Source: a virus. Taken from it: 47,403 bases of DNA. Of this stretch, positions 15,138 to 38,173 are shown piece by piece. The stretch covers positions 1 to 47,403 of IMG/VR virus record IMGVR_UViG_3300011438_000005; one strand, 5' to 3'. Numbering within the stretch: the first letter of the stretch is position 1; each line of letters begins with the position of its first letter. Made by a program: the position numbers and the translations under genes. The notes beneath the pieces were generated by a model. That model saw only the letters and a program-made list of their open reading frames with translations, did not search any database and had not been told where the DNA came from.

Positions 15138-15368
15138 ATGGAAGCGAAGGGCAAGGTGGTGGCGGTGCGGAAGGGCTGGGGTGGCATGTACCCCTCCATG
15201 CCGATGGAGGAGGGCGGGAAGCCGGAGCTCGAGATCGAGCTCGACGGCGGTGGCCGGATGACGCTGCCCGTCTCCCAGGCTGAAGCGAAGGAGTACCCCT
15301 TCGGCTCGAAGTGCACCGTGAAGCTCGAGCTCGCCGGCGAGCCCCCCAGCGACGGCGCGGATGACTGA
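15138..15368 (+). CDS. Hypothetical small protein (76 aa)
   Basis: Complete track ORF with an AAGGAG RBS. Confidence 0.65.
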   Translation: MEAKGKVVAVRKGWGGMYPSMPMEEGGKPELEIELDGGGRMTLPVSQAEAKEYPFGSKCTVKLELAGEPPSDGADD

Positions 15369-20805: not shown

Positions 20806-20837
20806 CCCCTCGAGCGTCCGGTGAGGCGCTCGAGGGG
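20806..20837 (+). terminator. Perfect 11-bp GC-rich hairpin (CCCCTCGAGCG-10 nt loop-CGCTCGAGGGG) in an intergenic gap
   Basis: Read directly. It sits between the stop at 20785 and ATG 20858 and has no T-tract. Confidence 0.35.
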
Positions 20838-20857
20838 GCCCGCGCAAGGAGAAGCCG

Positions 20858-21517: not shown

Positions 21518-21519
21518 CC

Positions 21520-24177
21520 ATGCCCCAGCCCTTTCGACAGGAGTCGTTCGCCGGTGGGGAAATCTCCCCGCGCGCGCGAAGCCGCACCGCCCTCGCGAAG
21601 TACGGGGTCGGCCTGCGCCGGGCGCGCAACGTGATCCCGACCCCCGAGGGCGCGCTCCTCAACCGGCCTGGCACGAACCTCGTGCGGGAGGCGAAGGACT
21701 CGGCGGCCGCCGTCGACCGGCCGATCCGCCTCATCCCCTTCGTCTTCTCCGAGAGCCCCGGCCAGGCCTACCTCCTCGAGTTCGGGCACCTGTACGTCCG
21801 CTTCCACGTGGGGGGCGCCACGGTGGCTGACCCCATCCTCCCAGCGAACCCGTACGAGGTGGTGAGCCCCTACACCGCGGCAGACCTCGCGCGCCTGAAG
21901 TTCGCGCAGCAGGGCGACGTCCTCACCCTCGCCCGCGGCGGCTACGTCGAGCGCGAGCTCGTGCGCAACGGCCACACCGACTGGGCCTTCCGCACCCTCG
22001 ACTTCGACGTGCCGCTCCCCAGCGGGCCGGGCGTCTACCTCGACGTCTCGGTGCTCGACCTCGCCGCCGACGGGACCCACCCCGCGAAACAGTGGTCCTT
22101 CCGGTACACCGAGCTGTGGCGCGGCCAGGAGGGCGTCGAGTGGGAGACGGCGCCCTTCATCGTCGACTCGGTCGCGGTGCAGGATCAGGACCAGTGGCAC
22201 GCGAAGTTCACCTATCCGGTGGGCGCGAAGGCCTACAAGGCCGCGGTCCTGTACCGCTCGCTCCTCGCGGCTAACCTCAACCACGACCCTGCCGCGCTCG
22301 GGATCTGGTGGGTGGTCGACGGCCTCGCGCAGATCCCGCCCAACCTCTACACGAACCCGGCGCCCCAGGAGCTCGTCCTCTACCCCGATCGCATCGTCAA
22401 GCTCTTCGCTCCGGCCCAGTTCGGCCTCACCGTGAACGACGGCTCGTTCATGTTCGGGCGGGGCGTCTACCGCGGCCGCGGCGAGCTCTTCGGCTACGTC
22501 GGCGACATGCTGCTCGACCTCACCTTCAACGACCCCGGGGACCTCCCGGACATAGCCCGCACGCCACCCCAGGGACGCAACCCCTTCAAGGTCTTTGACG
22601 AGACGGGAGCGCTCGTGCGCACGGAGCACGCGAAGGTGGTCACCTTCGCCGACCAGCGCCGCGTGTTCTTCGACACCGACGAGCGGCCGGCCTTCGGCTT
22701 CTTCTCGAGGACCGGGGATTACGGCAACTTCGACCACCACCAGCCCAAGCTCGCCGACGACGCCTTCGAGCTCGAGCTCGCCGGCCGGCTGCGCGAGGAG
22801 ATCCGATGGGCGGTGGGGCTCGACCAGATCCTCGTCGGCACCCAGAGCTCGGTCTGGGCCATCCGGTCGACCCAGGGCTCGGTCGTCGGCCCGGGGGCGA
22901 TGGAGGCGAAGCTCCAGAGCGCCGCCGGCGCCTCGTGGCTCGACCCGATCCTCGTGCCCCCCGACGTCGTGCTCTACGTGCGCACGAAGGGCTGCGGCCT
23001 GCGCGATCTCGTCTACGACGACGGGCGCGGGAAGTTCGTGGGCTCCGACCTGGTCGTCCTCGCCCGCCACCTCTTCACGGGCTACTCGATCGTCGACGCC
23101 GCGTACGCCGAGGACCCCTTCTCGGTGATCTGGCTCGTGCGCTCCGACGGGAAGCTCCTGTCCCTCACCTACCAGCGGGAGCAGGAGGTCTGGGCCTGGG
23201 CCTGGCACGACACCGACGGCCTGGTCGAGAACGTGTGCACCCTCCCCGAGGGCACCGAGGACGCGGTCTATCTGTGCGTGAAGCGGCAGCAAGGGGACGG
23301 GACCTGGCACCGCTTCATCGAGCGCATGCGCTCGAGGACGATCCCGAGGACGAGGTCCGGCCGGGCCGACCCGCGCTTCGGTCTCTTCCTCGACTGCGCG
23401 ACCACGCTCGATCAGCGGCACGTCGGGCCGGTGGGCGACGTCACCGTGAACGAGATCGCGGGCGGTGGGTACGGCGAGGGCGCCTCGGTCGAGGTGGTGG
23501 CTCACTCATTCGCCTACGGGTCCACGATCGGGCCGGGCTGGGAGGTCGCGCTCGACCCCGAGGCCGACCTGCCGATCCGCCTCGCGGTCCTCGTCCGGGT
23601 GGACGCGACGCACCTCACTTGCGAGGTCCTGGTTCCGGTGCCCGTCGCTTTCCAGGCGACGGCGACGGTCAACTGGGCGATGCCCCGGCCCAACGCGGCA
23701 AGCCTCCAGCACCTCGAGGGCCGCACCGTGACCGCCCTCGTCGACGGGACGCCGGTGGATGGGCTCGTGGTCGTCGGCGGGGAAGTGGCCCTGCCGATGG
23801 CGGGAACGATCATCCACGCCGGCCTGCCCTTCGTCTCCGAGGCGGAGCTCCTGCCGCTCGTCGTCCAGGGGCGCGAGGCGCGCACGAAGGTCAAGAACGT
23901 GGCGCGCGTGGTCCTCGAGCTCGAGGAGTCCCTCGGGGTCGAGGTGGCGGAGCGCGTCGCGGACAGCCTCGGCGCGCCCACCCCGGACGCCGACTGGAAC
24001 CCCTGGGACCAGCGCGAGGTCGACGAGGTCTCGGGCCGGCCCCAGCTCTTCACGGGCGAGGTGGAGCTCACCGCGATCTCGACCTGGAACCGGGGAGGGA
24101 TCGCCGCGGTGCGGCAGCGCCAGCCCCTCCCCTTCACGCTGCTCGCGGCAACGAGGGAGGTCGACGTCGGTGGGTAG
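21520..24177 (+). CDS. Putative tail tubular protein B / nozzle (T7 gp12-like, 885 aa)
   Basis: Track ORF 20821..24177 trimmed to ATG 21520, 2 nt after the adaptor stop. The N-terminus FAGGEISPRARSRTALAKYGVGLRRARNVIPTPEGALLNRPGT follows the gp12-type pattern. Size is typical. Confidence 0.65.
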   Translation: MPQPFRQESFAGGEISPRARSRTALAKYGVGLRRARNVIPTPEGALLNRPGTNLVREAKDSAAAVDRPIRLIPFVFSESPGQAYLLEFGHLYVRFHVGGATVADPILPANPYEVVSPYTAADLARLKFAQQGDVLTLARGGYVERELVRNGHTDWAFRTLDFDVPLPSGPGVYLDVSVLDLAADGTHPAKQWSFRYTELWRGQEGVEWETAPFIVDSVAVQDQDQWHAKFTYPVGAKAYKAAVLYRSLLAANLNHDPAALGIWWVVDGLAQIPPNLYTNPAPQELVLYPDRIVKLFAPAQFGLTVNDGSFMFGRGVYRGRGELFGYVGDMLLDLTFNDPGDLPDIARTPPQGRNPFKVFDETGALVRTEHAKVVTFADQRRVFFDTDERPAFGFFSRTGDYGNFDHHQPKLADDAFELELAGRLREEIRWAVGLDQILVGTQSSVWAIRSTQGSVVGPGAMEAKLQSAAGASWLDPILVPPDVVLYVRTKGCGLRDLVYDDGRGKFVGSDLVVLARHLFTGYSIVDAAYAEDPFSVIWLVRSDGKLLSLTYQREQEVWAWAWHDTDGLVENVCTLPEGTEDAVYLCVKRQQGDGTWHRFIERMRSRTIPRTRSGRADPRFGLFLDCATTLDQRHVGPVGDVTVNEIAGGGYGEGASVEVVAHSFAYGSTIGPGWEVALDPEADLPIRLAVLVRVDATHLTCEVLVPVPVAFQATATVNWAMPRPNAASLQHLEGRTVTALVDGTPVDGLVVVGGEVALPMAGTIIHAGLPFVSEAELLPLVVQGREARTKVKNVARVVLELEESLGVEVAERVADSLGAPTPDADWNPWDQREVDEVSGRPQLFTGEVELTAISTWNRGGIAAVRQRQPLPFTLLAATREVDVGG

Positions 24178-24646: not shown

Positions 24647-24810
24647 TGCCCAACGCCCAGGAGCGGAAGCTCAAGAAGGTGGCGAAGACCTTGCTCGGCA
24701 AGGGTGACCTGAAGCGCCTTCCGGGCGAGAGCGCCAAGGAGGCGATGGCCCGCTTCGTGTACGGCACGATGCGGAACCAGGGATGGAAGCCGAAGACGGA
24801 GAAGCGCTGA
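24646..24810 (+). CDS. Hypothetical small basic protein (54 aa)
   Basis: In the frame of track ORF 24307..24810. ATG 24646 shares one base with the upstream TGA, and a GGAGGAGC RBS is present. Confidence 0.55.
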   Translation: MPNAQERKLKKVAKTLLGKGDLKRLPGESAKEAMARFVYGTMRNQGWKPKTEKR

Positions 24811-25262
24811 TGTGCAGCCCTCTTGTGATCGGCGGCGTGCAGGCCTACGGCCAGATCCAGCAAGGCAACTATGAGGCCAAGGTCGAGAACCAGAACGCGC
24901 AATTTCTCGAGGGCGCCGCGGGCGTCGCGCAGCAGCGCGGCGGAAACGCGGCCGGCCTCCGCCGCATGAAGGGCTCCCAGGACATCGGCGAGGCGCGCGC
25001 CTCCGCCGGCGCCTCCGGCCTCGACGTGGGCTCCGGATCGGTCGTCGACATGATCGCCGACTCCCGCATGCTCTCCGAGCTCGACGCGCAGACCGAGACG
25101 AACAACGCCGCGCGCGAGGCCTGGGGGTACAAGGTCCAGGCCACCGAGGCGCGCGCCCGGGCGAAGCTCGCGAAGACGAAGTCGCGCTACAACGCCGCGG
25201 CGACGCTGCTCGGCGGGCTCGGGTCGACGGTCGAGCAGGGCGCGAAGATGGCGGGGGCCTGA
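24810..25262 (+). CDS. Putative internal virion protein (gp14 position, 150 aa)
   Basis: Track ORF 24783..25262 trimmed to ATG 24810, which shares one base with the upstream TGA. It has a hydrophobic N-terminus and is Gln/Ala/Gly-rich. Confidence 0.55.
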   Translation: MCSPLVIGGVQAYGQIQQGNYEAKVENQNAQFLEGAAGVAQQRGGNAAGLRRMKGSQDIGEARASAGASGLDVGSGSVVDMIADSRMLSELDAQTETNNAAREAWGYKVQATEARARAKLAKTKSRYNAAATLLGGLGSTVEQGAKMAGA

Positions 25263-25264
25263 GC

Positions 25265-27247
25265 ATGGCACCCCGACTCCGCCTCCAGACGCTCCCCGAG
25301 GTCGCCCCGATCCAGGGGCCCACGCCCCAGTACCACCTCGACGCTTCGGGCGCGTTCGGCGAGCAGCTCGTCCAGCAGGTCGGGCGCCTCGAGGGCGCGG
25401 CCGTGTCCGAAGGCCAGAAGCGCCTCGAGGAGCAGCGCGGCCGGGCGGACGTCGCCGCGATCGAGGAGGCCGAGGCGCGCTTCCAGCTCGACGTGAACGA
25501 CCGCATGTACGGGAAGGACGGCAAGGGCTTCCTCTCGCTCGAGGGCCACGACGCGCTCAAGGCCTCGACGACCACCTTCGACGAGATCCAGAAGCGCCGC
25601 GCCGAGATCGAGGGCACCCTCACCGATCGGCAGCGGACGGCCTTCCGGGCCCGGACGAACGGGACCCTCGTCGCCACCCAGCGCCAGCTCGAGGGCCACG
25701 TCGCCCAACAGGTCAAGGTGGTCGAGGGCCAGGCCTTCGCCTCGAGGCGCGCCGCGGCGCTCGACACGGTCGCGAACGGCTACCTCGACGCCGGCACGAT
25801 CGACCGGGAGCGGCAGAACCTCGAGCCGCTCGTGATGGCCGAGGCCAAGCGCCGGGGGCTCGAGGGCGCGGGCACCTACCCTCCGCCCGCCGATTCGGCG
25901 GCCGGGCAGGTCCTCCATGAGTGGCGGAACGACGTCGCGAAGACCGTGCTCGAGCGCCTCCTCGCCGACAAGGACGCCACGCGCGCCAAGGCCTTCCTGG
26001 CGCAGCCCAGCGCACCTGGCGGCGCGAGCGTCCGGGAAGCGCTCGGCCAGGAGGGCGCGAAGTACGAGGCCGCGATCGCCCACGTCTCCGAGCAGGTCGA
26101 GTCTTTCGACCGAGCAGCCTCCGCCGTCGAGGCGGCGCGGAACCCCTCGACCGGCAAGGTCGACGAGCGCTCGGCACGGAAGACGGTCGCCGATGCGCCG
26201 CCCGCCCTGCGCGCGACCACCCGGGCCCACCTCGAGCAGCTCCTCAACGGGGAGAGCGAGAGCTGGCGCGCCACGGTGGGCGACTGGTGGAACCAGGCGA
26301 AGACCGCCTACGAGGGCGGGCCGGACGGGAAGGCGCGGCGCGGCCTCCAGGCGATCCCCGGCAACGTCTCGAGCTGGCTCCGGGCGAACGCGCCCGACGC
26401 CTGGCGCAGCATGCAGGACTGGGCGAAGGCCGACATCGAGCACGCCCGCAGCGGCGCCTCCACGCCCGACCAGGAGGCCGCGTTCACCGAGCTCATGGTG
26501 AAGGCGATCGACAACCCCGACCAGTTCGTCACCCTCACCGGCCCCGAGATCGAGCAAAAGCACCTCTCGCGCGTCTCCCCGAAGGAGCGGCGCGCCCTGC
26601 TCGGCACGATCCTTCAGGCGAAGGCGCAGGCGCACCGGCCGGACGAGACCCTCCCGGCGAACGTCGTGAAGGAGATCCTCTCGAAGGGCCGGCCGGGCGG
26701 CGGCGGAGCGAGCCTCTTCCCCGCGAAGGGCGACGACCCCGGCCAGTGGCCCCCCGAGAAGAGCCAACTCTTCAACGTGATCTTTCGGGACCTCCTCGCC
26801 TACCAGGCGCAGGAGAAGGCGCGCACCGGGAAGGTGCCCGAGCTCGACGCCTTCTCGAAGAGGATCGACGGCTGGATGCAGCGCGGCACCGTGAAGGACA
26901 CCGGCGTCTTCTTCGACGACAAGGGCGTGCCTCGCGTGAAGGCCCTCACCTCGCCCGCCTATCAGGGCAAGGACTTCGAGGTGGACTCCCCGCCCGCGGC
27001 GCCGGTCCCGAACCCGAAGCGGGCGGAGTTCCGCGCGCTCCTGCGTGGCGACCGCAAGGCCGCGGTACCTGAGACCGAGGCCGTGCTCCAGTACCTCTGG
27101 GCGATCGACCCCACGAACCCGAAGGGGAACCCCCAGGCGCAGCCTCCGGCCGAGTTCTTCCAGACCTACGACCTCGACGAGCTCGACCTCCGCGCCGCGG
27201 GCGGCCGGGCCGGCGAGGCGTCGGTGCCGTACAACCGCGTGCCCTGA
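25265..27247 (+). CDS. Putative internal virion/core protein (gp15 position, 660 aa)
   Basis: Complete track ORF, largely helical in character. The call rests on position between the gp14-like and giant genes. Confidence 0.6.
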   Translation: MAPRLRLQTLPEVAPIQGPTPQYHLDASGAFGEQLVQQVGRLEGAAVSEGQKRLEEQRGRADVAAIEEAEARFQLDVNDRMYGKDGKGFLSLEGHDALKASTTTFDEIQKRRAEIEGTLTDRQRTAFRARTNGTLVATQRQLEGHVAQQVKVVEGQAFASRRAAALDTVANGYLDAGTIDRERQNLEPLVMAEAKRRGLEGAGTYPPPADSAAGQVLHEWRNDVAKTVLERLLADKDATRAKAFLAQPSAPGGASVREALGQEGAKYEAAIAHVSEQVESFDRAASAVEAARNPSTGKVDERSARKTVADAPPALRATTRAHLEQLLNGESESWRATVGDWWNQAKTAYEGGPDGKARRGLQAIPGNVSSWLRANAPDAWRSMQDWAKADIEHARSGASTPDQEAAFTELMVKAIDNPDQFVTLTGPEIEQKHLSRVSPKERRALLGTILQAKAQAHRPDETLPANVVKEILSKGRPGGGGASLFPAKGDDPGQWPPEKSQLFNVIFRDLLAYQAQEKARTGKVPELDAFSKRIDGWMQRGTVKDTGVFFDDKGVPRVKALTSPAYQGKDFEVDSPPAAPVPNPKRAEFRALLRGDRKAAVPETEAVLQYLWAIDPTNPKGNPQAQPPAEFFQTYDLDELDLRAAGGRAGEASVPYNRVP

Positions 27248-27253
27248 GCCCCC

Positions 27254-30200
27254 ATGCCCCTCACCCCCGCCGAAGCGATCGACGCCGCCCGCAAGGGCGA
27301 CCGCGCCGCGCTGGGCCTCGTGCGCGAGGAGCCCACGGTGCCAGTGGCGGCGCCGGCGGAGGAGCAGCCCATCGGACCGCCCGAGCCTCCGCGCGTGACG
27401 CCGGCGGAAGCCGTCGCCGGCGCCCGGGCGCGGGCCGGCCAGGAGCGGGACCTCGACGCGGGCTTCCAGGCCTGGAAGGCGACCCAGACCTCGCTCACCC
27501 CGGAGCGCGGGATCGACGTTGCGATGGTCGCGCGCGCCACGGGCAAGCCCTTCGACTTCGTCGCCGATCACCTCGACGAGCTCAAGAAGGGGGTCGACCA
27601 GGAGCGGCTCAAGAAGGGGATCCTCGAGTCGCCCACCCTCCAGCGCCTCATGCAGGACCCGCAGTCCGCCGCGGTGGTGAAGGACCGTCTCGACGACTTC
27701 TCCACCTGGGAGTGGATCTTCGGGCGCTGGACCCGCACGCCCACGAAGCGGTGGGACCCCCTCGCGAACGGCTACGCCTACGAGCTCAAGGGCCCGGAGA
27801 CGATGGCGGACGCCCCGGCCTGGGTGCAGGCGGCGCGCGGGGGCTGGGCGGAGAGCGTCCAGGTTCCGGCCCTCGCCGCGAAGGTCCTCGGCGGGCAGGG
27901 CACGCCCGAGGACGAGGCGGAGCTCGAGCGGCTCGACAAGGAGTACGGCGGCCGGACCTACGGCGCCCACAACCCGGCGACGCGCGCGCTCGTGGGCGCG
28001 CCGAAGATGCTGCCCTACATCGTGGGCTCCGCCCTCGCGCGGCTCGCCGGCGGGGCGGCCGCCGGCCTGGCGGGTGGCGGCGCCGGCGCCGCGGCGGGAG
28101 CTCCTGCGGCGGGAGTGGGCGCCGTACCTGGCGCGGCGGTCGGGGGGATCTCCGCGGCCGCGGTGGGCCAGTATGTCGCGGGCGCGGCCTTCGACTTCTT
28201 CGAGAACGTGGGCCCGCTGTACCTCCAGCTCCGCCGGATGAAGAACGCGGACGGCGATCCCCTCCTCTCCGACGAGGAGGCGAAGGGGTACGCCGTCTCG
28301 ACCTCGGCCGGCCTCTCGCTCCTCACCTCGGGGATCGGCGCGAAGGTCGCAACCTCGGTGCCCTGGCTCAAGGACGTCCTGAAGAAGCAGGCGGAGCGGG
28401 GCGCCCAGGCGGCCTTCGTCCACGCCGGCGGAGCCGAGGCGCTGAAGTACGCCACGATCCAGTACGGGAAACACGTCGCCTCCGGTGCCGCCCTCATGGC
28501 GACCCAGGCCGCGGGCAACGCCGCCACCGTCGAGCTCTCGCGCGCGCAGCACGGCGAGGCCGCGGACTGGTGGAACGTCGGGCGCGCTGCGCGCGACGGC
28601 GCGGTTACCGGCCTCCAGGACATGCTCCTCATCGCGGGGTGGACGCCAGCGCGGGAGTACCTGCGCGAGGTGGGGCTCACCGCCCAGATCCAGGCCGAGG
28701 GCCTGCGCTACGACGCCCTCATCGAGCAGGCCGGCAAGAGCAAGATCCTCGAGCACCCCGAGACCGGCGACCACGTGCTCGACCAAGTCGCGCTCGCGCA
28801 GGGCTCGCCCGTCATGCTGGCGGACCCCGCCGGGTGGGACGCCTACTGGACCGGGCGGAAGTTCAACCCGCGCGAGGTGGCGGGCGAGGTCGCCGGCGAC
28901 AGCGGCGCTCAGTACGACCGGGCGAAGGCCGGCCTCGACACCGACCTCAGCTTCCCCTTGCAGAAGTGGGCCTCGAAGTTCAAGGGGACCGAGCACCTCC
29001 TCGGGCTCCGCGATGACGTGAAGTTCACCGGGGAGACCCGGACCCGGCGCCAGCAGGCCGCATGGGCGAAGCAGCTCGAGGGCCTCCGGAAGGTGGCCGA
29101 GGGGGTCGGGAAGGACGAGCAGGTCGGCGAGCTCGACGGGATCGAGCATGCGAAGTACCTCGAGGTGCTCGCCGCGAAGCCGGAGCTCGGCGAGGCCCAC
29201 GCGCAAGCGGTGGCGCGGCTCTTCCGGGACTCGATCGCCTTCTTCGCCTCGAAAGCGCAGCTCACCCCCGCCCAGGTCGCCCAGCAGTTCCCGCTCCCCA
29301 TCCACGGCGAGGGCCCCGCCGGGCCGCGCGTCGCCACCCCGGCCCCGGAAGGGGTTCCCGTGCCAGAGGTCCAGGCAAGGCCGCAGGGCCCCGCGACACC
29401 GCCGGTGGGGCCCGTGGAGGCGCCAGGTCCCCGGAGGCCCGCAGAATGGCCGGCCGGTCGCGGGAAGGACCTTCCCGCGGAGACGCGAGCCCTCATCCTC
29501 GCCGCCTACCGAGGCGACCGCCGCGCGATCCTCCAGCTCAAGCGCGCCGCGTTCGTCGACGCCCTGGTGCCCCAGGTCGGCAACCAGCGGGCCCACGAGG
29601 AGTTTCTCCGCTCGAAGGGCTCCGAAGGGGGCGTCCACGTCGTGCTGGACATGCCCGGCCTGAAGGCCCGGAACGACCTGTACGGCCAGATCGCAGGGGA
29701 CCAGGCGCTCCAAGTCTTCGGCCGGGAGCTCGCCGAGGCCTCGAGGCCCCAGCGCGGCAAGGCCCACCGCATGAGCACGGGCGATGAATTCTATGGACAT
29801 TTCGACACCGCGGCCCAGGCCGACGCCTTCCTCGAGGACTTCAAGGGCCGCCTCGCCGGCCCGGCCGGGAAGCTCCGGGAGAAGGACCAGCTCTCGCTCT
29901 ACGCCGGCGTGGGCGCCACCAAGGAGGCCGCGGTCGCCGAGCTCGTGAAGGCGAAGGGCGCGGCGAAGGCGAAGTACGGCGACTCTCGCGCGGGCGGCGC
30001 GCTCGGGCACGGGGAGTCCTTCGTCTCGAGGGACGAGCTCGCGGTGGTGGCGCCCCCCTCCGCCGTCTCGCCGGCGCCGGCGAAGGACGTGGGCAAGGCG
30101 GCGGAGCGGGCGTTCTCCTTCCTGCGCTCCGGGAAGGGCGGCGCCGAGCTCGCCGACCTGGTGCGGGCCGCGAAGGAGGCCTCGGCCGCGGGCGGCAAGG

Positions 30201-33200
30201 GCGAGGTGCCGAAGGAGCTCCGCAAGCAGGTTGACGCGGTGCAGAAAGAGATCCGGGACCTCGAGGCGAAGCGCGCCAAGGCCGCCGGGAAGGCCGAGCC
30301 CGGCGACAAGGACGAGCAGGTCCGGCGCCAGATCGAGGCCCAGGATCCCGTGATGCGGCGCAGCACGACTCGCCGGGTGCACCTCGTCCTCGCCCCGGAC
30401 GAGGAGGGCGGCGCGCCGCGCTGGCAGGTCCTCGGCCCCGAGGCGCCCCCCGCCGGCGCCGAGATCCGGCCGGTGACCATGCCGGAGTGGCTCTCCGGCG
30501 AGCGGTTCGCCGGCGAGCGGCCGGCGTGGGAGTGGACCTGGAGCGCGCTCCAGGATGGCTCCGCAGCCCCGGAGCAGGCCCAGAAGCTCGTGCAGGCCTA
30601 CATGCGGCGGGCCTTTGAGGACTTCCCGCCCAACGACTTCGCGCTCCGCCAGGGGTACGCCGTCGCCCGGATCCTCGACGGCTTCGGCGGAAAGAAGCTC
30701 AAGAGCGTTTTCGACGACCTGCGCGCGTGGATGCGGCTCCCCGAGGGCGCCCGGCCGGAGGACCCGCTGCCCGAGGTGGCATGGGGGCACCTCATCGACT
30801 TCGCCCAGCGGGACATCCGGTACGTGACCACCCAGAAGGGCTTTGCGAACAAGCAGGTCACGTCGACCATGCTCGAGTGGCTGCGCATCACGCGCGCCGA
30901 GCTCGACCCTTCGAGGCCCACCTTCGCGAAGCGGCCGCCGAAGTTCTACGGCCAGGCCGTCACCCTCGAGGAAGCGCGCGCGCCCACCGCAGCCGACCCG
31001 ATCGCCGCGAAGCTCGAGGGCCTGCGCGCGCGGGCGGGCGAGCTCGAGGCGCAGGCGCGCGAGGCGCGCGTGCAGACCGCGGCGGCCCGGCCCAAGCTCG
31101 ACGCCCAGGCCGTGATCGACGTGGTCGGCGCCGACGCACAGGGCGCCTTCCGCGGCCTCATCGCCGAGGGCGGGATCCACCCCGACGAGCTCGCGAAGCG
31201 CCTCGGCCTCGAGGACGGCGTCGAGCTCCTCTCCGCGATGGCGGCCGCCCACCGAGAGAAGACCGGGGACGTCGGGGTCGTCGAGCTCGACCAGGGCGCG
31301 GTGGTGCTGCGCCAGGGCGAAGTCTCCGAGGCGAGCGGCTCGCCGTGGCACTCGGCCGTCGAGCGGGCGATCGAGTCGGTGCTGCTCAAGGTCAATACGA
31401 CCCCCCTCAAGGACGACGAGGCCACGCCGAGGGAGTGGCTCGCGAAGATCCGGAAGACCCCGGGCGTGAAGGCCGAGGAGATCGAGATTCTGGGTCTCGA
31501 CGCCCTGCTCGGCGGAGCGGACCAGACGAAGCGGGCCCGCTGGGCGATCGTCGCCGCGGTGCGCCAGCGGCGCATCGTCGTTACGGAGCGGATTCTCGGC
31601 GAGCCGCCGAAGCTCGACGCGATGGGCCAGGCCATCCGGCGCGCGATGGTGGAGGAGCTCCACGCCGAGGGGCTCGAATACGCTCCGGCGGGCGATGGCG
31701 CCGGGCCGGGCTTCCGGCTCGCCGACGAGCGGTTTGGGATCGTCACCCTTTCGCAGGCGCGCGACATAATGACGAGGCGGAGCAGGGGGGACCGCGGTGG
31801 CGTGTTCGCCCCGATCCCGGACTCCCAGCTCGAGGCGATCGTAAACGCCGGCGCGAACCTCGTGGCCCTCGAGAAGGACGGCGGGGACGGCATCCTCTGG
31901 TACCTCACCGACGGCGCGCCGGTCCCCGCCCACGGGAGCCTCATTTCCACCGCGGCATGGATCGCCCAGGAGCTCAGTCACCGGGAGCTCGAGGGCCGGG
32001 TCACGAAGGACATGCTCGAGCCCGTCCGAAAGACGCTCCAGGAGCAGCTCGACGCGAGCCTCGAGGAGACGGGCGCGAAGGTGATGCAGGTCTGGGAGAT
32101 GGGGGCCGACTCGTTCACTTTCAGTCCCCCGGGATTCCAGGTAATCGCCGGCGCGCTCGCTGGCGCCGGCCGAGGGGTCGGGCCGCGCTTCGCCACCCGG
32201 GCCGAGGCGGAGGCGCATGCGCTCGTGATGCAGAAGGCGTACCGGGAGCTCAAGCGCCCCGAGTACGAGTCGGCGGTGCGCACCTACCAGGGCCACCTCG
32301 ACAACCTCGCTTTCTTCGAGGGGAAGCACCTCGAGGAGTACGCGAGCCCGGAGGAGAAGCTCAAGGTTCACTACGGCGGCCCCCAGGGCTACACGGTCGG
32401 CAACGAGGCCGAGGGCACCTACCGAGAGATCCTCCTCTTCCGGCCCGAGCAGCCGACCGGAGTGAACGAGCTCCTGCGCCAGGGCTTCTACCAGTCGCCA
32501 CACTTCCAGGGGGACGCCGGCCTGAACGGCGACCTCATGGCCCACGCCCGGGTGTCGGAACACCGCCTCGGCGACGACTCGCGCGTCCTCCTCATCGAAG
32601 AGATCCAGTCGGACCTCCACCAGGCCGGACGAGAGAAGGGCTACACCGACGCGCAGGTCGACCCGGCCCGGTTCAAGGTGGACAGCGGGAAGACCACCCC
32701 CTCGGGCGTGACCCTCTGGCGCGTCGAGGACCCCGTCACGAGGCGCGTCGAGACCCTCCGGAGCGACTTCCAGCGGAACGTCGTCGACGAGGCGAGCGCG
32801 CGTGCGCACTTCGCGTCCCTGCTCGTGCGCGAGCTCCGCCAGGTGCAGGCCTCGAAGAAGGCGGTCCCGGATACCCCGTTCAAGGAGACCTGGGAGGAGC
32901 TCGTCGTCAAGCGCGTGCTGCGCTACGCGGCGGAGAAGGGCCACAACCGGATCGCCCTCACCCCGGGCGAGGTGCACACCCGCCGATGGGGCTCCGAGCT
33001 CATCGCGTGGGAGAAGGGCCCGAAGACGGAGAGCGCGCCGGAGCTCGTCGTGTCCTGGGAGGACGCGCGCGGGAAGCTCATGCGGGCGATCCAGGATCAC
33101 AGCGACACGGTGCAGCCCCGCAACGAGCGCTTTTGGTCCGGACGCCTCGCGGAACTATCGGAGGCGAAAACCGAGCAAGAGGCGGCTGACGCGATCGGCC

Positions 33201-36200
33201 GAGGTGGCGAGTCGTTCGCCGAGGCGATTCACCGGCTCGAGCGCGCCGAGCTCAACGGCTTCGGCCTCGGGGATCTCCTCGGCACGCACGAGGTCCAGGG
33301 GTTCCACCTCCGCGTGAAGGAGCAGTCGGGCGGCCAGGTGGCGGGGCTCAACCTCGAGGAGGCCGCGGTGGCGCGGGGCCTCGTGCACCAGGGCGGCGCG
33401 CCGGACTTCGTCGCCTCCGAGGCGGACCTCGAGGCGAAGCTCACCGCGAGCCTGCCCCGGTGGTCGGCGGAGCGCCGCGCGGCCGTCGCGAAGAAGCTCT
33501 GGGCGAAGATGCAGACCCAGGACCAGGGCGCGAGCGCGCCGCGCGCCGAGGCCTTCACCCAGGCCTACGACCGGAGGATCAAGGGCGTCCTCGAGAAGCT
33601 CGCGAAGAAGTACCGCGGCAAGCTCGAGGTGGCTCCCCTCGGCGACGTCTTCAAGGGCTCCGCCCGCTGGGAAATCTTCAGGATGAACCCCGGCGAGCTG
33701 CGCAACGCGCTCGCCTCGAAGATCAGCGTCCGGCTCGAGCAGCTTTGGCAGGCCGAAAAGGATCGCTACGCTGCCCTCACCCTCGAGGAGCAGCGGCGCC
33801 CGGACACGAAGCTCATGTCCGACGCGGAGCGCGAGACGGAGCGCTCGCTGCACAGCACGATCTCGAATCTCTCCGGTGGCTCAGACATTCTGCACGCGAT
33901 CGGCATCCCGGACCGCGACCCGGTGGGCACCTACAACGCCATGCGCGAGTGGTCGGATCGGGTGGGGATCCCCATCGACGACCTCGTGAACGATCCCCAC
34001 ATCGAGGTGTGGACGGTCGACCTGCCGCAGGAGGGCCGCAACCGGATCCTGCGCGAGGGCCTGCCCCTCTTCCAGGAGGGCCGCGGCCTCGTGAAGTTCC
34101 GGGTGCCCGGCTCCCCCGGCGAAGGGATCGAGCTCGACCTCACCCTGCTCGCCCGGGCCGACGAGTCGACCGCGGCGCACGAGCTCGGTCACTGGATGGG
34201 CCTCGTTCTCGGCCAGCTCGCGAGCCGCGTCGGCGCCGCGCCGGAGCTGCAAGGACTGTACGCGACGGCCCTGAAGGCGATGGGCTACACCGACCACGAC
34301 CAGCGGATCGCCGCGCTCCTCGAGCTCCAGGCGCTCGCACGCCGGGAGGCGGAGGGGGCCACCCTCACCGCGGCGGAGAAGACCCGCCGGACCACCCTCG
34401 AGGCCGGCGAGGAGCAGCTCTCCCACGCCTTCGAGCTCTACCTCTCCGAGGGCAAGGCCCCCACCGTGGAGCTCGGGCGCATCTTCTCCCGGTTCAAGCT
34501 CTGGATGGTCCGGATCTACAAGGGCCTCGCCGGCGTGCAAGCCACCTACGAAAAGGACTATGGGCGGCCGCTCGAGCTCTCCGACGACGTCCGGCGCATG
34601 TTCGACCGGATCCTCGGCGCGGACGAGGCGGTGCGCCAGGCGGAGCTCGACCTCGAGGGCGCCCAGCTCGAGGCGGCGGTGCGCGCGGCCGCCCCGCCGG
34701 CGGAGGCTGACCAGATCGTCCGGGACCTCCTCGAGGCGCGCCGCCTCGGCAAGGAGCAGGTCCACCGCCTCCTCCTCGCCGAGGACTCGCGCGAACGGCA
34801 GGAGTTCTTCCAGCGGGAGCGCGAGAAGGCCTCGACCGAGATCGCGGCCGAGCTCGACAAGCAGCCTGGGTACAGGGCGCAGCGGTTCCTCCGGGAGGGG
34901 GTCATGCCCGAGGGCCAGGCGCTCCCCGACGAGCTCGTGACCGACGTCGGCGAGCCCCGCATGCTCGACCGCGACGAGGCGGTCGCCCGGTACGGCGCCG
35001 ATTTCGTGAACCGGGCGCTCCGCGGCCTCACCACCCGCGGCGACCGGGCCGTCCCCGCGGACGTCGCGGCCGAGGCCTTCGAGTTCAAGAGCGGCGACGA
35101 GCTCGTGCAGGCGCTCGCGAAGCTGCCGAACCGGGCCGAGACGATCCGCACGCGCGTGGAGGAGCGGCTCCAGCGGGACTTCGGCCCGACGCTGCTCGAG
35201 AACCCCGCGAAGCTCGCCGACGAGGCGATGGACGGGATCCACAACGAGGCGAAGGCCCGGTCCATCCTCGCCGGGATGCGCCTGCTCGCCCGCAAGCTCT
35301 ACCCAGCGCTCGACCCTCGCTTCCGGTCCGTCGACCTGGTCGCGCTCGAGCGGCGCGCGCGCGAGCTCGTCGACGAGCGGCCGCTCACCGAGGCGGCGCC
35401 GGGCCGGGCCCTCCAAGCGGAGAAGCGCCAGGGCCGGCTCGCCCTCGAGCTGCTCGGGAAGGCCGTCCGCGAGAAGGACGAGACCACCCGGCGGGAGATC
35501 GCGGCGCAGGCCTTCGACGCGCATGAACAGGCGCTCTTCTCACACTTCATGTGGAGGGCCGCGAAGGAGGCCCGGGACCAGGCCGACAAGGACGTCGCCC
35601 GCCTGCGCACCGTCTCGGGGCCCCGGATCCGGGCCGACCTCGGCAAGGCCGGCGCCGACTATCAGGAGCGCGTCGACGACCTGCTCGCCTCCGTCGAGCT
35701 GCGCGCCTCGAGGAGCGTCGCCGAGGTGGGCCGGCGCCGGGATATCAACGCCGCGGCCGGTGGCGACACCGTCGCGGCCGCCTCCATGCTCGCCTGGATC
35801 GAGCAGCAGCGCGCGCTCAACCGCGACCCCTACGTGCCCGACCGGGTGATCGAGCTCCTGAAGAAGACCCAACACTGGCGCGAGCTCACGCCGGCGGAGC
35901 TCGCCGACCTCCGCTCCACGGTCGACTCCATCGTCCACCTCGCCCACGTGAAGACGACCCTCCTCACCACCCAGGGGCGGCGGGAGCGGAAGGCAATCAT
36001 CGGCGAGCTCTCCCAGCGGCTCTTCGAGAGCTTCGGCGACAACGCGATCGTCGTCGACCGGAACACCCTCTCCTTCAAGAAGAGGGCGCTTCGCGCCGTC
36101 AAGCGGCTCCAGGCCGGCGTGATCCGGCCCGAGGAGTTCTTCCGGGAGGCGGACGGCGGCGACCTCAACGGCCCCTTTACTCGCTACCTCTGGAACGTGG

Positions 36201-38173
36201 TCTCCGACTCCGCGCACAGGTGGAGCGACCTCGCCGACCAGGTGGCGAAGCCGGTGCTCGCCGAGCTCGAAAAAATGCCCATGAGCGAGAAGCTGCGCTG
36301 GCGCGGCGAGCGGTTCACCGTGAAGGGCCAGCCCTACACGATGGAGGCCGCGCTCGCCGTGGCGCTCAACTGGGGCAACCCCTCCAACCGCCAGAAGCTC
36401 GTGAAGGGGTGGAGATACGGCGGCCTCGAGAAGTTCGGCCTCCAGGCATGGGATGGCCCGGAGACCGGGCAGGAGTTCCTCCGCCACCTCACCGCTGGCG
36501 ACTGGAAGCTCGTGCAGCGGATCTGGGACCAGCTCGAGACCCTTTGGCCCCAGATGGAGGAGCTCGAAAAGCGCATGACCGGCCTCGCCCCGCCGAAGAT
36601 CAAGCGGGAGAAGTTCACCGTGCGCACCCCCGACGGCCAGGACCTCGAGCTCGACGGCGGGTACTATCCGATGGTCTATGATCGGCGCTTCTCCAGGGCC
36701 GGCGCGGCGCAGGGCGAGAAGAGCGACCTCGGCTCCTTCCAGCTCTTCTCCCCCGGCGCGGAGCGCGCGATCACTCCCCACGGGCACCTCAACGCCCGCG
36801 TCGAGGACTTCGCCAGGCCGGTGGACCTCTCCCTCGTCGGCCTGTACCGCCACATGGGGCACGCCACGAAGGACGTCGCCATGCGCGAGGCCTTGATCTC
36901 GGTCCACGAGATCCTCACCGACTCGGACTTCCGGGCCGCCCTCCAGCGCACCGCCGGCGAGGAGGTCCTGCCGCTCCTCGACAAGTGGCTGCGCGACACC
37001 GCGAACGACCTCGTGATCCCGGACGGCGGCGAGGGCCAGTGGCTCGCGTTCAACAACATAACGCGCTCCGGCCTCACCGGCTCGATCTTCGCCTTCAACG
37101 CGGCGCAGAGTCTTCAGAACCTCACCGGCGTCTTCAACGCTGCCGACCGCGTCGACGCCCGGTACCTCTGGAAGGGGATCTCGCAAGTCTCGAAGCAGCG
37201 CGGCGCCGTGATCGAGTGGATCAAGCGCGTCGACCCGGAAATGCGGCACCGCGCCCGGAACCTCGACCGCGACCTGGCGGCCGAGTTCCGCCGCACCCTC
37301 GGGCGAACGGGCCCGGTCGCGCGCGCGAAGCAGGTCGCGATGTGGGCCTTCCAGGCCTCCGACGCCGTGACCGCGTACGCCGTGTGGCTCGGCGCCTACC
37401 ACCAGGCGCTCGACGGGAAGGTCGACGGGGTCGGCACCACCCAGCAGGAGGCCGTGCGCTGGGCCTCCCAGACCGTCCGCCTCTCGTTGACGTCCAACAT
37501 GACGAAAGACCTCCCCGCGCTCATGCGCTCGCCGCACGCCAAGTGGTTCACGATGTTCGCGGGCTGGGCGAATAGCCGCCTCAACCGCCTGATCGCCGGC
37601 TCGAGCGACGCCAGGCGCGACTGGAGCGACAAGCGGCGCGGCCGGGCGATCCGGAAGTTCACCCGCATCACCTTCTGGTTCCTCGCCGCGGCCGTGATCT
37701 CTGACCTCGCGGTAGGGAAGGGCGCCCAGGACGACGACGAGGACGGGCGCGTCGACGGGGCCGACTGGGCCCGCTTCATCGCCCGCCGCGCCGCGCTCGC
37801 TCCGTTCTCGGTCGTGCCGCTCGTCGGCCCCCTGGCCCGGGCGGTCGTCGACAAGCGCAGGGACGTCTCCCTCGCCCCGGTCGAGCGAATCTACTCCCAG
37901 GCCGCGCAGGCCATCGGCACCGGCATCGACGCGGGGCGCAAGTGGCTCGCCGGCGACGAGGAGTGGACCCAGGATCTCGCCGACTTCGCCCTCTCCGGCG
38001 CCGAGGCCGCGGCGATGGGCACCGGCCTTCCCGTCTCCCAGGCGAAGGCCTCGCTCGGCTACTGGCTCGACCCGGACCGCGACCCGGAGGACACCGCCCT
38101 CGAGCGGGCACTCGGCACCACGTACGGGAAGAAGCGCAAGGGCTCCCTCTCGACTGCCCTCACAGGAGAATGA
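27254..38173 (+). CDS. Giant 3,639-aa protein in the gp16 (ejectosome/internal core) position; multi-domain polyvalent-type protein with a GGDEF-like domain and an HExxH motif
   Basis: Uninterrupted track ORF of 10,920 nt with G/C-rich third positions throughout. ATG 27254 lies 6 nt after the upstream stop. Features by amino-acid position: a Gly/Ala-rich hydrophobic stretch (about 255-315), GGDEF-like domain (about 765-910, STGDEF at 840-845), EEIQSD block (about 1782), HELGH (2309-2313) and a C-terminal TM helix (FTRITFWFLAAAVISDLAV). Confidence 0.85.
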   Translation: MPLTPAEAIDAARKGDRAALGLVREEPTVPVAAPAEEQPIGPPEPPRVTPAEAVAGARARAGQERDLDAGFQAWKATQTSLTPERGIDVAMVARATGKPFDFVADHLDELKKGVDQERLKKGILESPTLQRLMQDPQSAAVVKDRLDDFSTWEWIFGRWTRTPTKRWDPLANGYAYELKGPETMADAPAWVQAARGGWAESVQVPALAAKVLGGQGTPEDEAELERLDKEYGGRTYGAHNPATRALVGAPKMLPYIVGSALARLAGGAAAGLAGGGAGAAAGAPAAGVGAVPGAAVGGISAAAVGQYVAGAAFDFFENVGPLYLQLRRMKNADGDPLLSDEEAKGYAVSTSAGLSLLTSGIGAKVATSVPWLKDVLKKQAERGAQAAFVHAGGAEALKYATIQYGKHVASGAALMATQAAGNAATVELSRAQHGEAADWWNVGRAARDGAVTGLQDMLLIAGWTPAREYLREVGLTAQIQAEGLRYDALIEQAGKSKILEHPETGDHVLDQVALAQGSPVMLADPAGWDAYWTGRKFNPREVAGEVAGDSGAQYDRAKAGLDTDLSFPLQKWASKFKGTEHLLGLRDDVKFTGETRTRRQQAAWAKQLEGLRKVAEGVGKDEQVGELDGIEHAKYLEVLAAKPELGEAHAQAVARLFRDSIAFFASKAQLTPAQVAQQFPLPIHGEGPAGPRVATPAPEGVPVPEVQARPQGPATPPVGPVEAPGPRRPAEWPAGRGKDLPAETRALILAAYRGDRRAILQLKRAAFVDALVPQVGNQRAHEEFLRSKGSEGGVHVVLDMPGLKARNDLYGQIAGDQALQVFGRELAEASRPQRGKAHRMSTGDEFYGHFDTAAQADAFLEDFKGRLAGPAGKLREKDQLSLYAGVGATKEAAVAELVKAKGAAKAKYGDSRAGGALGHGESFVSRDELAVVAPPSAVSPAPAKDVGKAAERAFSFLRSGKGGAELADLVRAAKEASAAGGKGEVPKELRKQVDAVQKEIRDLEAKRAKAAGKAEPGDKDEQVRRQIEAQDPVMRRSTTRRVHLVLAPDEEGGAPRWQVLGPEAPPAGAEIRPVTMPEWLSGERFAGERPAWEWTWSALQDGSAAPEQAQKLVQAYMRRAFEDFPPNDFALRQGYAVARILDGFGGKKLKSVFDDLRAWMRLPEGARPEDPLPEVAWGHLIDFAQRDIRYVTTQKGFANKQVTSTMLEWLRITRAELDPSRPTFAKRPPKFYGQAVTLEEARAPTAADPIAAKLEGLRARAGELEAQAREARVQTAAARPKLDAQAVIDVVGADAQGAFRGLIAEGGIHPDELAKRLGLEDGVELLSAMAAAHREKTGDVGVVELDQGAVVLRQGEVSEASGSPWHSAVERAIESVLLKVNTTPLKDDEATPREWLAKIRKTPGVKAEEIEILGLDALLGGADQTKRARWAIVAAVRQRRIVVTERILGEPPKLDAMGQAIRRAMVEELHAEGLEYAPAGDGAGPGFRLADERFGIVTLSQARDIMTRRSRGDRGGVFAPIPDSQLEAIVNAGANLVALEKDGGDGILWYLTDGAPVPAHGSLISTAAWIAQELSHRELEGRVTKDMLEPVRKTLQEQLDASLEETGAKVMQVWEMGADSFTFSPPGFQVIAGALAGAGRGVGPRFATRAEAEAHALVMQKAYRELKRPEYESAVRTYQGHLDNLAFFEGKHLEEYASPEEKLKVHYGGPQGYTVGNEAEGTYREILLFRPEQPTGVNELLRQGFYQSPHFQGDAGLNGDLMAHARVSEHRLGDDSRVLLIEEIQSDLHQAGREKGYTDAQVDPARFKVDSGKTTPSGVTLWRVEDPVTRRVETLRSDFQRNVVDEASARAHFASLLVRELRQVQASKKAVPDTPFKETWEELVVKRVLRYAAEKGHNRIALTPGEVHTRRWGSELIAWEKGPKTESAPELVVSWEDARGKLMRAIQDHSDTVQPRNERFWSGRLAELSEAKTEQEAADAIGRGGESFAEAIHRLERAELNGFGLGDLLGTHEVQGFHLRVKEQSGGQVAGLNLEEAAVARGLVHQGGAPDFVASEADLEAKLTASLPRWSAERRAAVAKKLWAKMQTQDQGASAPRAEAFTQAYDRRIKGVLEKLAKKYRGKLEVAPLGDVFKGSARWEIFRMNPGELRNALASKISVRLEQLWQAEKDRYAALTLEEQRRPDTKLMSDAERETERSLHSTISNLSGGSDILHAIGIPDRDPVGTYNAMREWSDRVGIPIDDLVNDPHIEVWTVDLPQEGRNRILREGLPLFQEGRGLVKFRVPGSPGEGIELDLTLLARADESTAAHELGHWMGLVLGQLASRVGAAPELQGLYATALKAMGYTDHDQRIAALLELQALARREAEGATLTAAEKTRRTTLEAGEEQLSHAFELYLSEGKAPTVELGRIFSRFKLWMVRIYKGLAGVQATYEKDYGRPLELSDDVRRMFDRILGADEAVRQAELDLEGAQLEAAVRAAAPPAEADQIVRDLLEARRLGKEQVHRLLLAEDSRERQEFFQREREKASTEIAAELDKQPGYRAQRFLREGVMPEGQALPDELVTDVGEPRMLDRDEAVARYGADFVNRALRGLTTRGDRAVPADVAAEAFEFKSGDELVQALAKLPNRAETIRTRVEERLQRDFGPTLLENPAKLADEAMDGIHNEAKARSILAGMRLLARKLYPALDPRFRSVDLVALERRARELVDERPLTEAAPGRALQAEKRQGRLALELLGKAVREKDETTRREIAAQAFDAHEQALFSHFMWRAAKEARDQADKDVARLRTVSGPRIRADLGKAGADYQERVDDLLASVELRASRSVAEVGRRRDINAAAGGDTVAAASMLAWIEQQRALNRDPYVPDRVIELLKKTQHWRELTPAELADLRSTVDSIVHLAHVKTTLLTTQGRRERKAIIGELSQRLFESFGDNAIVVDRNTLSFKKRALRAVKRLQAGVIRPEEFFREADGGDLNGPFTRYLWNVVSDSAHRWSDLADQVAKPVLAELEKMPMSEKLRWRGERFTVKGQPYTMEAALAVALNWGNPSNRQKLVKGWRYGGLEKFGLQAWDGPETGQEFLRHLTAGDWKLVQRIWDQLETLWPQMEELEKRMTGLAPPKIKREKFTVRTPDGQDLELDGGYYPMVYDRRFSRAGAAQGEKSDLGSFQLFSPGAERAITPHGHLNARVEDFARPVDLSLVGLYRHMGHATKDVAMREALISVHEILTDSDFRAALQRTAGEEVLPLLDKWLRDTANDLVIPDGGEGQWLAFNNITRSGLTGSIFAFNAAQSLQNLTGVFNAADRVDARYLWKGISQVSKQRGAVIEWIKRVDPEMRHRARNLDRDLAAEFRRTLGRTGPVARAKQVAMWAFQASDAVTAYAVWLGAYHQALDGKVDGVGTTQQEAVRWASQTVRLSLTSNMTKDLPALMRSPHAKWFTMFAGWANSRLNRLIAGSSDARRDWSDKRRGRAIRKFTRITFWFLAAAVISDLAVGKGAQDDDEDGRVDGADWARFIARRAALAPFSVVPLVGPLARAVVDKRRDVSLAPVERIYSQAAQAIGTGIDAGRKWLAGDEEWTQDLADFALSGAEAAAMGTGLPVSQAKASLGYWLDPDRDPEDTALERALGTTYGKKRKGSLSTALTGE

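Follow-up and report, generated by a model that had tools for sequence, protein, structure and literature searches.

A divergent GGDEF domain within a giant polyvalent protein that shares its C-terminal core with podovirus ejection proteins: a candidate virion-delivered diguanylate cyclase

Two bodies of published work describe the systems that come closest to the one considered here. GGDEF domains, the nucleotide-cyclase modules of diguanylate cyclases, were listed among the domains of injected phage polyvalent proteins by Iyer et al. 2017 (J Bacteriol, PMC5512222), who described them as "not very widespread", gave as an example WP_004096050.1 of Acetonema longum and suggested that proteins of this kind might disturb the nucleotide signalling of the host or turn it to use. 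Separately, Hardies et al. 2016 (PMC4819975) described homologues of the ejection protein IVP-D (T7 gp16) that carry enzymes destined for the cytoplasm, namely the virion RNA polymerase of N4 gp50 and the methylase of Pseudomonas phage H66 gp60, and listed Bbp10 of Bordetella phage BPP-1 in their Table 2 as the IVP-D homologue of the epsilon15 subgroup. The DNA analyzed here, called the window throughout, is the whole 47,403-nucleotide stretch of IMG/VR virus record IMGVR_UViG_3300011438_000005 (positions 1 to 47,403), and the element in question is a GGDEF domain encoded within its giant open reading frame (ORF; 27254..38173, plus strand), the product of which is a polyvalent protein of 3639 amino acids (aa) fused to a core of the IVP-D (T7 gp16) type, as judged from the ORF list and from PHROG, Pfam and BLASTP matches. 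An earlier note on this stretch had remarked that no ejectosome protein with such a domain was known, which is too strong in view of the two reports just cited. A full-text literature search returned no paper linking GGDEF with the terms ejectosome, ejection protein or gp16, and no experimental work was found on GGDEF-bearing ejection or polyvalent proteins or on a virion-delivered signal synthase.

Residues 753-930 of the giant protein (178 aa; 29510..30043, plus strand, as are all features of this ORF) are a genuine GGDEF-family nucleotide-cyclase domain with a palm of the diguanylate-cyclase type, an identification that is confirmed because four lines of evidence agree, these being a Pfam match, matches in the PDB, family-profile matches and the predicted fold. 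The Pfam profile PF00990 matches an excised region of 250 aa with 27.8 bits (E 2.5e-6) over a cut-off of 23.8. Compared as a single sequence with all PDB chains by phmmer, the domain gives 18 weak matches, the best at E 0.006, all of them to GGDEF-domain proteins and nearly all to proteins named diguanylate cyclases; a family profile built from the domains of 44 relatives matches 53 PDB sequences, almost all of them diguanylate cyclases or other GGDEF proteins (including 3pjw, a receptor for cyclic di-GMP, or c-di-GMP), with a best value of 8e-17 (5euh). An AlphaFold2 model of aa 753-930, made on the family alignment, has a mean predicted local distance difference test score (pLDDT) of 94.9 and a predicted template modelling score of 0.90, and the 50 top Foldseek matches of this model in the PDB are all GGDEF structures, with template modelling (TM) scores of 0.56-0.69 and 17-25% identity to the canonical cyclases among them, the best being DgcB (6ttr, E 2.8e-9, TM 0.69). 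The divergent GGDEF-type palm that the earlier note had proposed in this virion-position protein is thereby upheld by profile, family-profile, fold and catalytic-residue evidence alike, including two of the checks that it had suggested, namely a PF00990 search and an AlphaFold model. Its placement of the domain at 29545-29985 was right as to location and imprecise at the edges, since codon 765 begins one base later, at 29546, and the folded unit is wider, taking in an N-terminal helix and a C-terminal extension, KYGDSR...GHGESF.

This extension (aa 907-923, window 29972-30022) is kept in the giant-protein members of the family (P0001-P0009 type, by cluster number), and in the model it is predicted with confidence to form an extra strand; canonical cyclases are without it. 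Two other readings of the fold were considered and can be ruled out: a class III adenylyl or guanylyl cyclase or a Cas10/mCpol-type palm, given that class III proteins reach 3e-5 against 8e-17 for GGDEF and that the top structural matches are all GGDEF, and a chance resemblance of motifs, given the Pfam, family-profile and structural matches. At aa 752-847 the giant ORF is matched by phrog_5594 and phrog_9661, both labelled "unknown function", and it seems that PHROGs includes GGDEF families of phages which lack that annotation.

Conservation of individual residues was read from a MAFFT alignment of 148 relatives, for which some columns were counted over 144. The columns that are nearly invariant are D769, G776, N777, A780, G793, D799, N807, G811, G815, D816, R839, the G-G-D-E-F signature, G885, G887, A893, A900 and K901. 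Five blocks that had been aligned by eye with canonical cyclases in the earlier note all fall on family-conserved columns (D769/N777, D799..N807..D816, R839..GDEF, G885/G887 and A900/K901), and the peptides quoted there are in place: DALVPQVGN at aa 769-777 (29558-29584), VVLDMPGLK at aa 796-804, STGDEF at aa 841-846, LSLYAGVGA at aa 880-888 and AVAELVKAKGAAK at aa 893-905. The N-terminal motif D769-x7-N777-Q778 (29558..29587), comparable to DxLTGLxNRR, has D769 and N777 conserved in at least 97% of the family. It is followed by the substrate and metal block D799-M-P-G-L-K804-A-R-N807-D...G-Q812...G-D816 (29648..29701), in which D799, N807 and D816 are at least 90% conserved; this block aligns to the D-x-x-G-F-K-A-I-N-D-x-Y-G-H-x-x-G-D of PDB entry 4urg, and N807 and D816 stand nine residues apart, as do their equivalents in solved enzymes (N335 and D344 in PleD). 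The signature hairpin R839-M-S841-T842-G-D844-E845-F846 (29768..29791) was placed by BLASTP to the cyclase of Myxococcus phage Mx1 and by the MAFFT alignment, in a block modelled with pLDDT 95-97, and its TGDEF lies at 29777-29791, exactly as first reported. The C-terminal motif A-K901-G-A-A-K905 (29954..29968), comparable to A-K-x-x-G-R, is what we take to be the phosphate-binding motif, the roles of K901, K905 (Lys for Arg) and R839 being assigned from established knowledge of GGDEF enzymes; K901 is present in 138 of 144 relatives and K905 is invariant in the clade.

The catalytic set that is retained comprises D799, K804, N807, D816, R839, G843, D844, E845, F846, K901 and K905. D799, D844 and E845 are each shared by 95% or more of the 148 relatives, and Lys occupies position 804 in 83 of 144; the first metal-binding Asp (D799, 29648-29650) and the acidic DE pair are kept, as had been claimed. 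In GGDEF enzymes Mg is bound by the signature Asp, the Glu works across the dimer as the general base, and an Asp at the position that contacts the Watson-Crick face drives specificity for GTP (Hallberg et al. 2019, PMC6456294). The RxxD I-site, which would lie five residues upstream of the signature, is absent from the window domain, in agreement with the earlier note, and the sequence found there is R-P-Q-R-G-K-A-H-R. Of the 148 relatives, 5 have an I-site at the canonical spacing, none of them belonging to the STGDEF clade, the group of closest relatives that share the signature of the window domain.

The protein that carries the domain is built in three parts, as seen by BLASTP: a conserved N-terminal part of aa ~60-940, running from an LPD22 domain through the GGDEF domain, a centre of ~1330 aa, and a conserved C-terminal core. 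Alignments to six relatives (P0003, P0004, P0005, P0007, P0027 and P0108) are confined to the N-terminal part and the C-terminal core. LPD22 is typical of phage and plasmid polyvalent proteins; in the window protein it lies at aa 81-158 (27494..27727; PF18834, over the cut-off whether scored in the whole protein, at E 8.5e-7, or in the N-terminal piece, at E 2.6e-8), and it is found also in P0005, P0007 and P0003. A Pro-rich linker beginning at aa 685 and a short lead-in (29306..29509), read from the translation and lying outside the confident model, precede the GGDEF domain, and a second Pro-rich stretch (aa 930-944) comes directly after it. The central part (aa ~931-2269; 30044..34060) is variable, with no Pfam match and no counterpart in the relatives. 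The C-terminal core (aa 2270-3639, 1370 aa; 34061..38170) matches phrog_9880 with E 5.9e-198, and by tblastn it matches 49 records of cultured podophages, including those of Pseudomonas phage AF, Xanthomonas phage CP2 and Caulobacter and Vibrio phages. Its tblastn match to Bbp10 of phage BPP-1 (E 8e-68, 27% identity, 78% coverage) makes the giant protein homologous to IVP-D, the T7 gp16 family, since Bbp10 is a listed IVP-D.

The order of genes agrees with this assignment. Two genes upstream of the giant ORF is a gp14 (IVP-B)-like gene (24810..25262, plus strand) with a Pfam T7_gp14 match of E 2.1e-5 and 24.9 bits, below the cut-off of 27, and between them is a 660-aa gene in the position of gp15 (IVP-C; 25265..27247, plus strand), with a lysin-like N-terminus that matches phrog_10475 and phrog_1044 (endolysin) over aa 12-199 with E 1e-12. 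The giant gene comes after gp14-like and gp15-position genes both in the window and in relatives at L003 and L008: P0003 (3298 aa; L003 and L004) and P0005 (3095 aa; L008) occupy the same slot, behind a T7_gp14 gene and a gene of ~640 aa. In these syntenic relatives T7_gp14 is recorded as an unmarked precomputed hit, and the gp15-position products are 641-646 aa long. What was found, with respect to the definition of a polyvalent protein, is LPD22, GGDEF and an IVP-D core in one polypeptide, with virion genes (portal, protease/scaffold, capsid, tail tube, gp14-like and gp15-position) directly upstream.

Three side observations concern the remainder of the giant protein. The central ~1330 aa (window 30044-34060) look like a swappable effector cassette; other cargo is found in the giant proteins of the relatives, namely ddrB-ParB together with PBECR5, S-AdoMet lyase, LPD39 and, in P0007, ART-PolyVal. 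A Gly/Ala-rich hydrophobic stretch, GSALARLAGGAAAGLAGGGAGAAAG...VGQYVAGAAF (aa 258-313, window 28025-28192), matches a "tail associated lysin" PHROG weakly (phrog_1047, E 5.7e-4) and may insert into membranes. At the start of the IVP-D-like core, HELGH (aa 2309-2313, 34178-34192) is followed ~80 residues on by QLSHAFELY (aa 2388-2396, 34415-34441), a combination that recalls the zincin-type peptidase domains of polyvalent proteins and of N4 gp50; no Pfam family matched it.

A word-indexed protein search with the 250-aa region gave zero hits, and it took exhaustive HMMER searching to detect relatives of the domain. Among 1.84 billion representative proteins, the latter recovered 396 clusters (defined at 50% identity) at E up to 1e-3 and 50 at E up to 1e-10. 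In a collection of 5.8 billion proteins, members of this clade score 161-217 bits with the family profile and the best cellular sensor cyclases 71 bits, a separation which indicates that the clade is distinct from cellular GGDEF proteins. What marks it out is D-x-[ML]-[VT]-P-x-x-G-N-[KR], which replaces DxLTGLxNRR, together with the lack of an I-site. Members take three forms: the domain lies at aa ~720-980 in giant proteins (2300-3900 aa), at 200-360 in proteins of ~400 aa, or stands alone in proteins of 200-250 aa. Pfam GGDEF is matched by 21 of the 22 long members, the relatives scoring 31-61 bits, and long members also carry LPD22 (5 of them), PBECR5 (2), LPD39, ddrB-ParB and S-AdoMet lyase; in P0007 an ART-PolyVal match directly after the GGDEF domain (E 6.8e-5) is below the Pfam cut-off. 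Fusion in cis of GGDEF to the IVP-D core, with the domain at the same position (aa ~720-980), is seen in at least seven giant relatives (P0003, P0004, P0005, P0007, P0027, P0045 and P0100). The GGDEF segment is 54%, 45% and 41% identical to those of P0004, P0005 and P0007, compared with ~26% for the C-terminal core and ~28% for the rest of the N-terminal part, which is a sign that the GGDEF segment is under constraint.

Among 50,697 deposited phage records the window domain matches that of Myxococcus phage Mx1 alone, and a second query, a 396-aa clade member, adds eight human faecal fragments, unannotated, that match weakly. The Mx1 cyclase gene (L001:6043-6774, corresponding to OR576727.2 17173-17904) is in the head module; its neighbours encode a prohead protease of 1239 aa on one side and the major capsid protein on the other, and genes for head-internal proteins typically occupy such a place. 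Eight viral proteins with the GGDEF fold were found in BFVD, examples being a 396-aa protein of an uncultured member of the Caudovirales (30% identity), a "GGDEF domain protein" of Bordetella phage CN1, gp350 of Bacillus phage G and a "diguanylate cyclase" of Bacillus phage SP-15. Scans of IMG/VR viral contigs with the domain and of JGI metagenome contigs with the STGDEF-clade alignment found no relative.

The function that we propose is that of a feedback-insensitive GGDEF cyclase, delivered at entry on an ejection protein of the epsilon15/BPP-1 podovirus type, that would raise the c-di-GMP level of the host, and on the sequence evidence we regard the chances of this being correct as evenly balanced. 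The giant protein would be packaged in few copies by way of its C-terminal, gp16-like IVP-D core and, on ejection, would pass with the DNA into the cell envelope and cytoplasm. There the GGDEF modules, set between flexible Pro-rich linkers and held close to one another by the oligomeric ejectosome, would pair up, each binding one GTP.Mg, and the pair would condense two GTP into c-di-GMP, a synthesis that would escape product inhibition because the RxxD I-site is absent. The resulting rise in c-di-GMP, free of host control and starting in the first minutes of infection, would reprogramme motility, pili, exopolysaccharide or the cell cycle in favour of the phage, and possible pay-offs would include the shutdown of motility or pili, a change of the cell surface that excludes other phages and a push to the cell cycle. 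By a rough estimate, a handful of enzyme pairs working at ~1 turnover/s could make about a thousand molecules in ten minutes, which would be on the order of micromolar and within the physiological range. Dimerisation, catalytic activity, the nature of the product and the benefit to the phage are all steps that we infer.

Several observations weigh against this proposal. Scored in the whole protein, PF00990 reaches 23.7 bits, just short of the cut-off of 23.8, and the precomputed annotation of the giant protein holds LPD22 alone, without GGDEF, which may be because this whole-protein score sits near the threshold. As to delivery, homology and synteny are what suggest that the giant protein would be packaged and ejected, and phmmer searches against all PDB chains (which we take to include the cryo-electron microscopy structures of the T7 ejection proteins) gave no match at E up to 1 for the C-terminal core and zero matches for the gp15-position protein; ejection proteins are described as diverging beyond the reach of ordinary sequence searches (PMC4819975). 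With respect to effect, no PilZ, EAL, HD-GYP or other family related to c-di-GMP, whether receptor or phosphodiesterase, was recognised among the window proteins that were scanned. The remaining points concern catalysis. The hairpin R-M-S-T-G-D-E-F is one residue longer than the R-x-G-G-D-E-F of the relatives and has Ser/Thr at the position of the first Gly, where every cyclase that has been well studied shows Gly-Gly, so that the replacement of this Gly by Thr, as it was originally described, is correct in that the Gly is lost and incomplete in that the change is not a simple substitution. Five further family-conserved positions are replaced in the clade (K/R778 to Q, N/D801 to P, H812 to Q, S883 to Y, and D/E894 to V, L or A, with V894 in the window), and the first of these, Q778, falls by motif alignment at the position of the cross-dimer Arg, which is present in 94% of diguanylate cyclases (PMC6456294).

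MSTGDEF is identical in five clusters (P0001-4 and P0010), position 778 is Lys or Arg in 124 of 144 relatives and Gln in all four members of the STGDEF clade, and all six changes (the loop and the other five) are common to the four closest clusters, five of them without variation and the sixth, at position 894, always with a hydrophobic residue (V/L/A). Where the domain was matched, identity between the STGDEF clusters and the window sequence is 57-66%, the nearest relative being ~63% identical. Because six family-conserved sites, including the signature loop and the cross-dimer position, carry changes that are fixed in this subclade, catalytic competence cannot be assumed, and whether the window domain would be a working c-di-GMP synthase is, in our estimation, close to a toss-up. 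Experience with other variant signatures points in both directions, in that natural SGDEF and AGDEF enzymes are active and (G/S/A)G(D/E)EF has been proposed as the functional motif, and in that VCA0965 is active with G, A, H or M alone at the first signature position, most substitutions there, which would include Thr, having lost the effect on motility (Hunter et al. 2014, PMC3974145). We found no precedent for a lengthened hairpin or for Thr at the first signature position.

The non-canonical hairpin with its inserted residue, the five further replacements and the loss of effect in most VCA0965 substitutions, which would cover Thr, would all suit a catalytically dead GGDEF domain that has been kept as a module for nucleotide binding (of GTP or c-di-GMP), protein interaction or structure, as in PelD, PopA, FimX and CdpA, and about one-quarter of GGDEF domains are degenerate, many of those being receptors (PMC3974145). 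We nevertheless consider this doubtful, for the c-di-GMP receptors among GGDEF domains normally bind through the RxxD I-site that the window domain does not have, and canonical RxGGDEF is kept by nearly all clade members outside the STGDEF subclade. Moreover, degenerate receptor GGDEF domains usually lose several catalytic or binding residues, and here the metal-, base- and phosphate-binding residues are all retained together with the general-base Glu.

A second alternative takes the fixation of the six changes within the subclade at face value: residues that are derived, fixed and constrained are better explained by altered function than by decay, and the enzyme might be active with altered chemistry, making 3',3'-cGAMP (cyclic GMP-AMP), another cyclic dinucleotide or a linear pppNpN that would serve as a decoy or disturb defence based on cyclic nucleotides. 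Gln at the cross-dimer position is in line with this, as Hypr GGDEF enzymes with Tyr, Ser, Ala or Gln there make mainly cGAMP, but the main specificity residue of the window domain is Asp (D816) and not Ser or Thr, and Asp at this place enforces GTP use and c-di-GMP synthesis in mutants of GacA and WspR (PMC6456294). N807 is canonical as well, and no precedent was found for a GGDEF product beyond the purine cyclic dinucleotides, all of which leads us to think an altered product unlikely. Least probable of all, in our judgement, is that an active cyclase works late in the producer cell rather than after ejection, for example in changing the cell surface or blocking superinfection, for while the gene is in the late structural module, so that far more protein would be made than the few copies packaged, and some relatives stand alone at 200-400 aa and could be other than virion proteins, the domain shares a polypeptide with the IVP-D core, at one position, in the giant relatives mentioned above and co-occurs with the injected-effector domains ART-PolyVal, PBECR5, ddrB-ParB and S-AdoMet lyase, and late timing and ejection timing are not mutually exclusive.

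Returning to a cyclase that is delivered at entry and makes c-di-GMP, its significance, if it is active and delivered, would be that a pre-made enzyme alters a host second messenger ahead of all phage gene expression. What phages are known to do with cyclic-nucleotide signals is to degrade, sequester or block them. A broader and much more speculative idea, which we hold to be improbable, is that the I-site-less and apparently phage-borne GGDEF clade as a whole (396 clusters) would be virion-delivered, some members on podovirus ejection proteins and at least that of Mx1 as a small head-module protein, with an STGDEF subclade, marked by its lengthened hairpin and cross-dimer Gln, that has acquired a new product or regulation; phages would in that case inject a second-messenger synthase and so take over or jam host nucleotide signalling as they enter. 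The 178-aa module with its sharp boundaries, along with a natural canonical comparator in the Mx1 cyclase, makes for a concrete and testable case, with the practical limit that phage and host are both uncultured, and the six clade-specific substitutions could reveal how much alteration the GGDEF hairpin allows.

The surroundings of the giant gene are those of a podovirus structural module. Besides the genes already mentioned, it includes a small terminase (12570-13250), portal (15361-17196), protease/scaffold (17817-18686) and major capsid protein (18730-19716, matching Pfam GP7), then a Bbp16-like gene, listed between the capsid and tail-tube genes, and the tail-tube protein (20821-24174). 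The endolysin PHROG match of the 660-aa protein in the gp15 position raises the possibility that this protein, and not the gp16-like one, carries the wall-degrading activity of the ejectosome. The G+C content of the window is 71%, and that of third codon positions in the frame of the giant ORF is 0.95; an antisense open frame of 2637 aa (25187-33100, minus strand) that overlaps the giant gene is probably a by-product of the 71% G+C. Two metagenome contigs (ENA ERZ27267719) have a called product identical to that of the giant ORF. With the giant gene as query, megablast gave zero matches in the same 50,697 phage records, and no prophage relative or host was found when genome contigs were scanned with the capsid protein. 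Accessory genes of the window include an ERF-family recombinase (6830-7768, minus strand; Pfam E 2e-17) and a DNA methyltransferase (8874-10058, plus strand; phrog_359, E 1e-47), and by the gene calls on L002 there is a weak Mom-like match (PF25680) near 47370-47840, running beyond the window end at 47403. No integrase was seen and no tRNA genes were found in the window.

Compared with known enzymes, the window domain has the fold (TM 0.6-0.7) and the catalytic residue set of canonical cyclases such as PleD, WspR, DgcB (6ttr) and GcbC (5euh), from which it differs in having DxLVPxxGNQ for DxLTGLxNRR, a longer STGDEF loop, no I-site and a place within a virion-position protein; nowhere along the giant protein could a sensory or receiver domain be recognised. 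With the Mx1 protein WNM70324.1, annotated as a "nucleotide cyclase" (OR576727.2), it shares its clade, the DxMVPxxGN motif, the lack of an I-site and 32% identity over 140 aa (E 7e-18), whereas the Mx1 protein stands alone at 243 aa, has a canonical NGGDEF (Pfam GGDEF E 1.3e-9) and comes from a 170-kb phage. ECA3270 (SGDEF) and VCA0965 (AGDEF) resemble it in that the first signature position is not Gly and the D-E-F and other catalytic residues are intact, but they have a normal loop length and an I-site (PMC3974145). Hypr GGDEF enzymes resemble it in the replacement of the cross-dimer Arg, by Tyr in GacA and by Gln in the window domain, and differ in having Ser where the window has Asp D816 at the Watson-Crick-face position and in being response regulators (PMC6456294).

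At the level of the whole protein, the polyvalent GGDEF proteins of Iyer et al. are likewise giant multi-domain proteins of phages or prophages, encoded among virion genes and predicted to be injected, in which GGDEF stands beside unrelated modules, and LPD22 was itself defined in that study. Going by its published description, the Acetonema example joins GGDEF to SNF2, methylase, zincin and ART domains, unlike the LPD22, GGDEF and IVP-D core of the window protein, and the 2017 study gives no clade analysis of the polyvalent-protein GGDEF domains. N4 gp50 and H66 gp60 have in common with the window protein, itself a predicted virion protein, a C-terminal core of the IVP-D type and N-terminal or central enzymatic cargo in one very large polypeptide; their cargo is a polymerase or a methylase, and that of the window protein is a second-messenger synthase domain. 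Both GGDEF in polyvalent proteins (predicted from sequence in 2017) and enzyme cargo on IVP-D (2016) had therefore already been described, and what is new in the window and its relatives is the fusion of GGDEF to the IVP-D core, the size and coherence of an I-site-less clade found so far in phages and metagenomes, and a constrained STGDEF variant of the signature.

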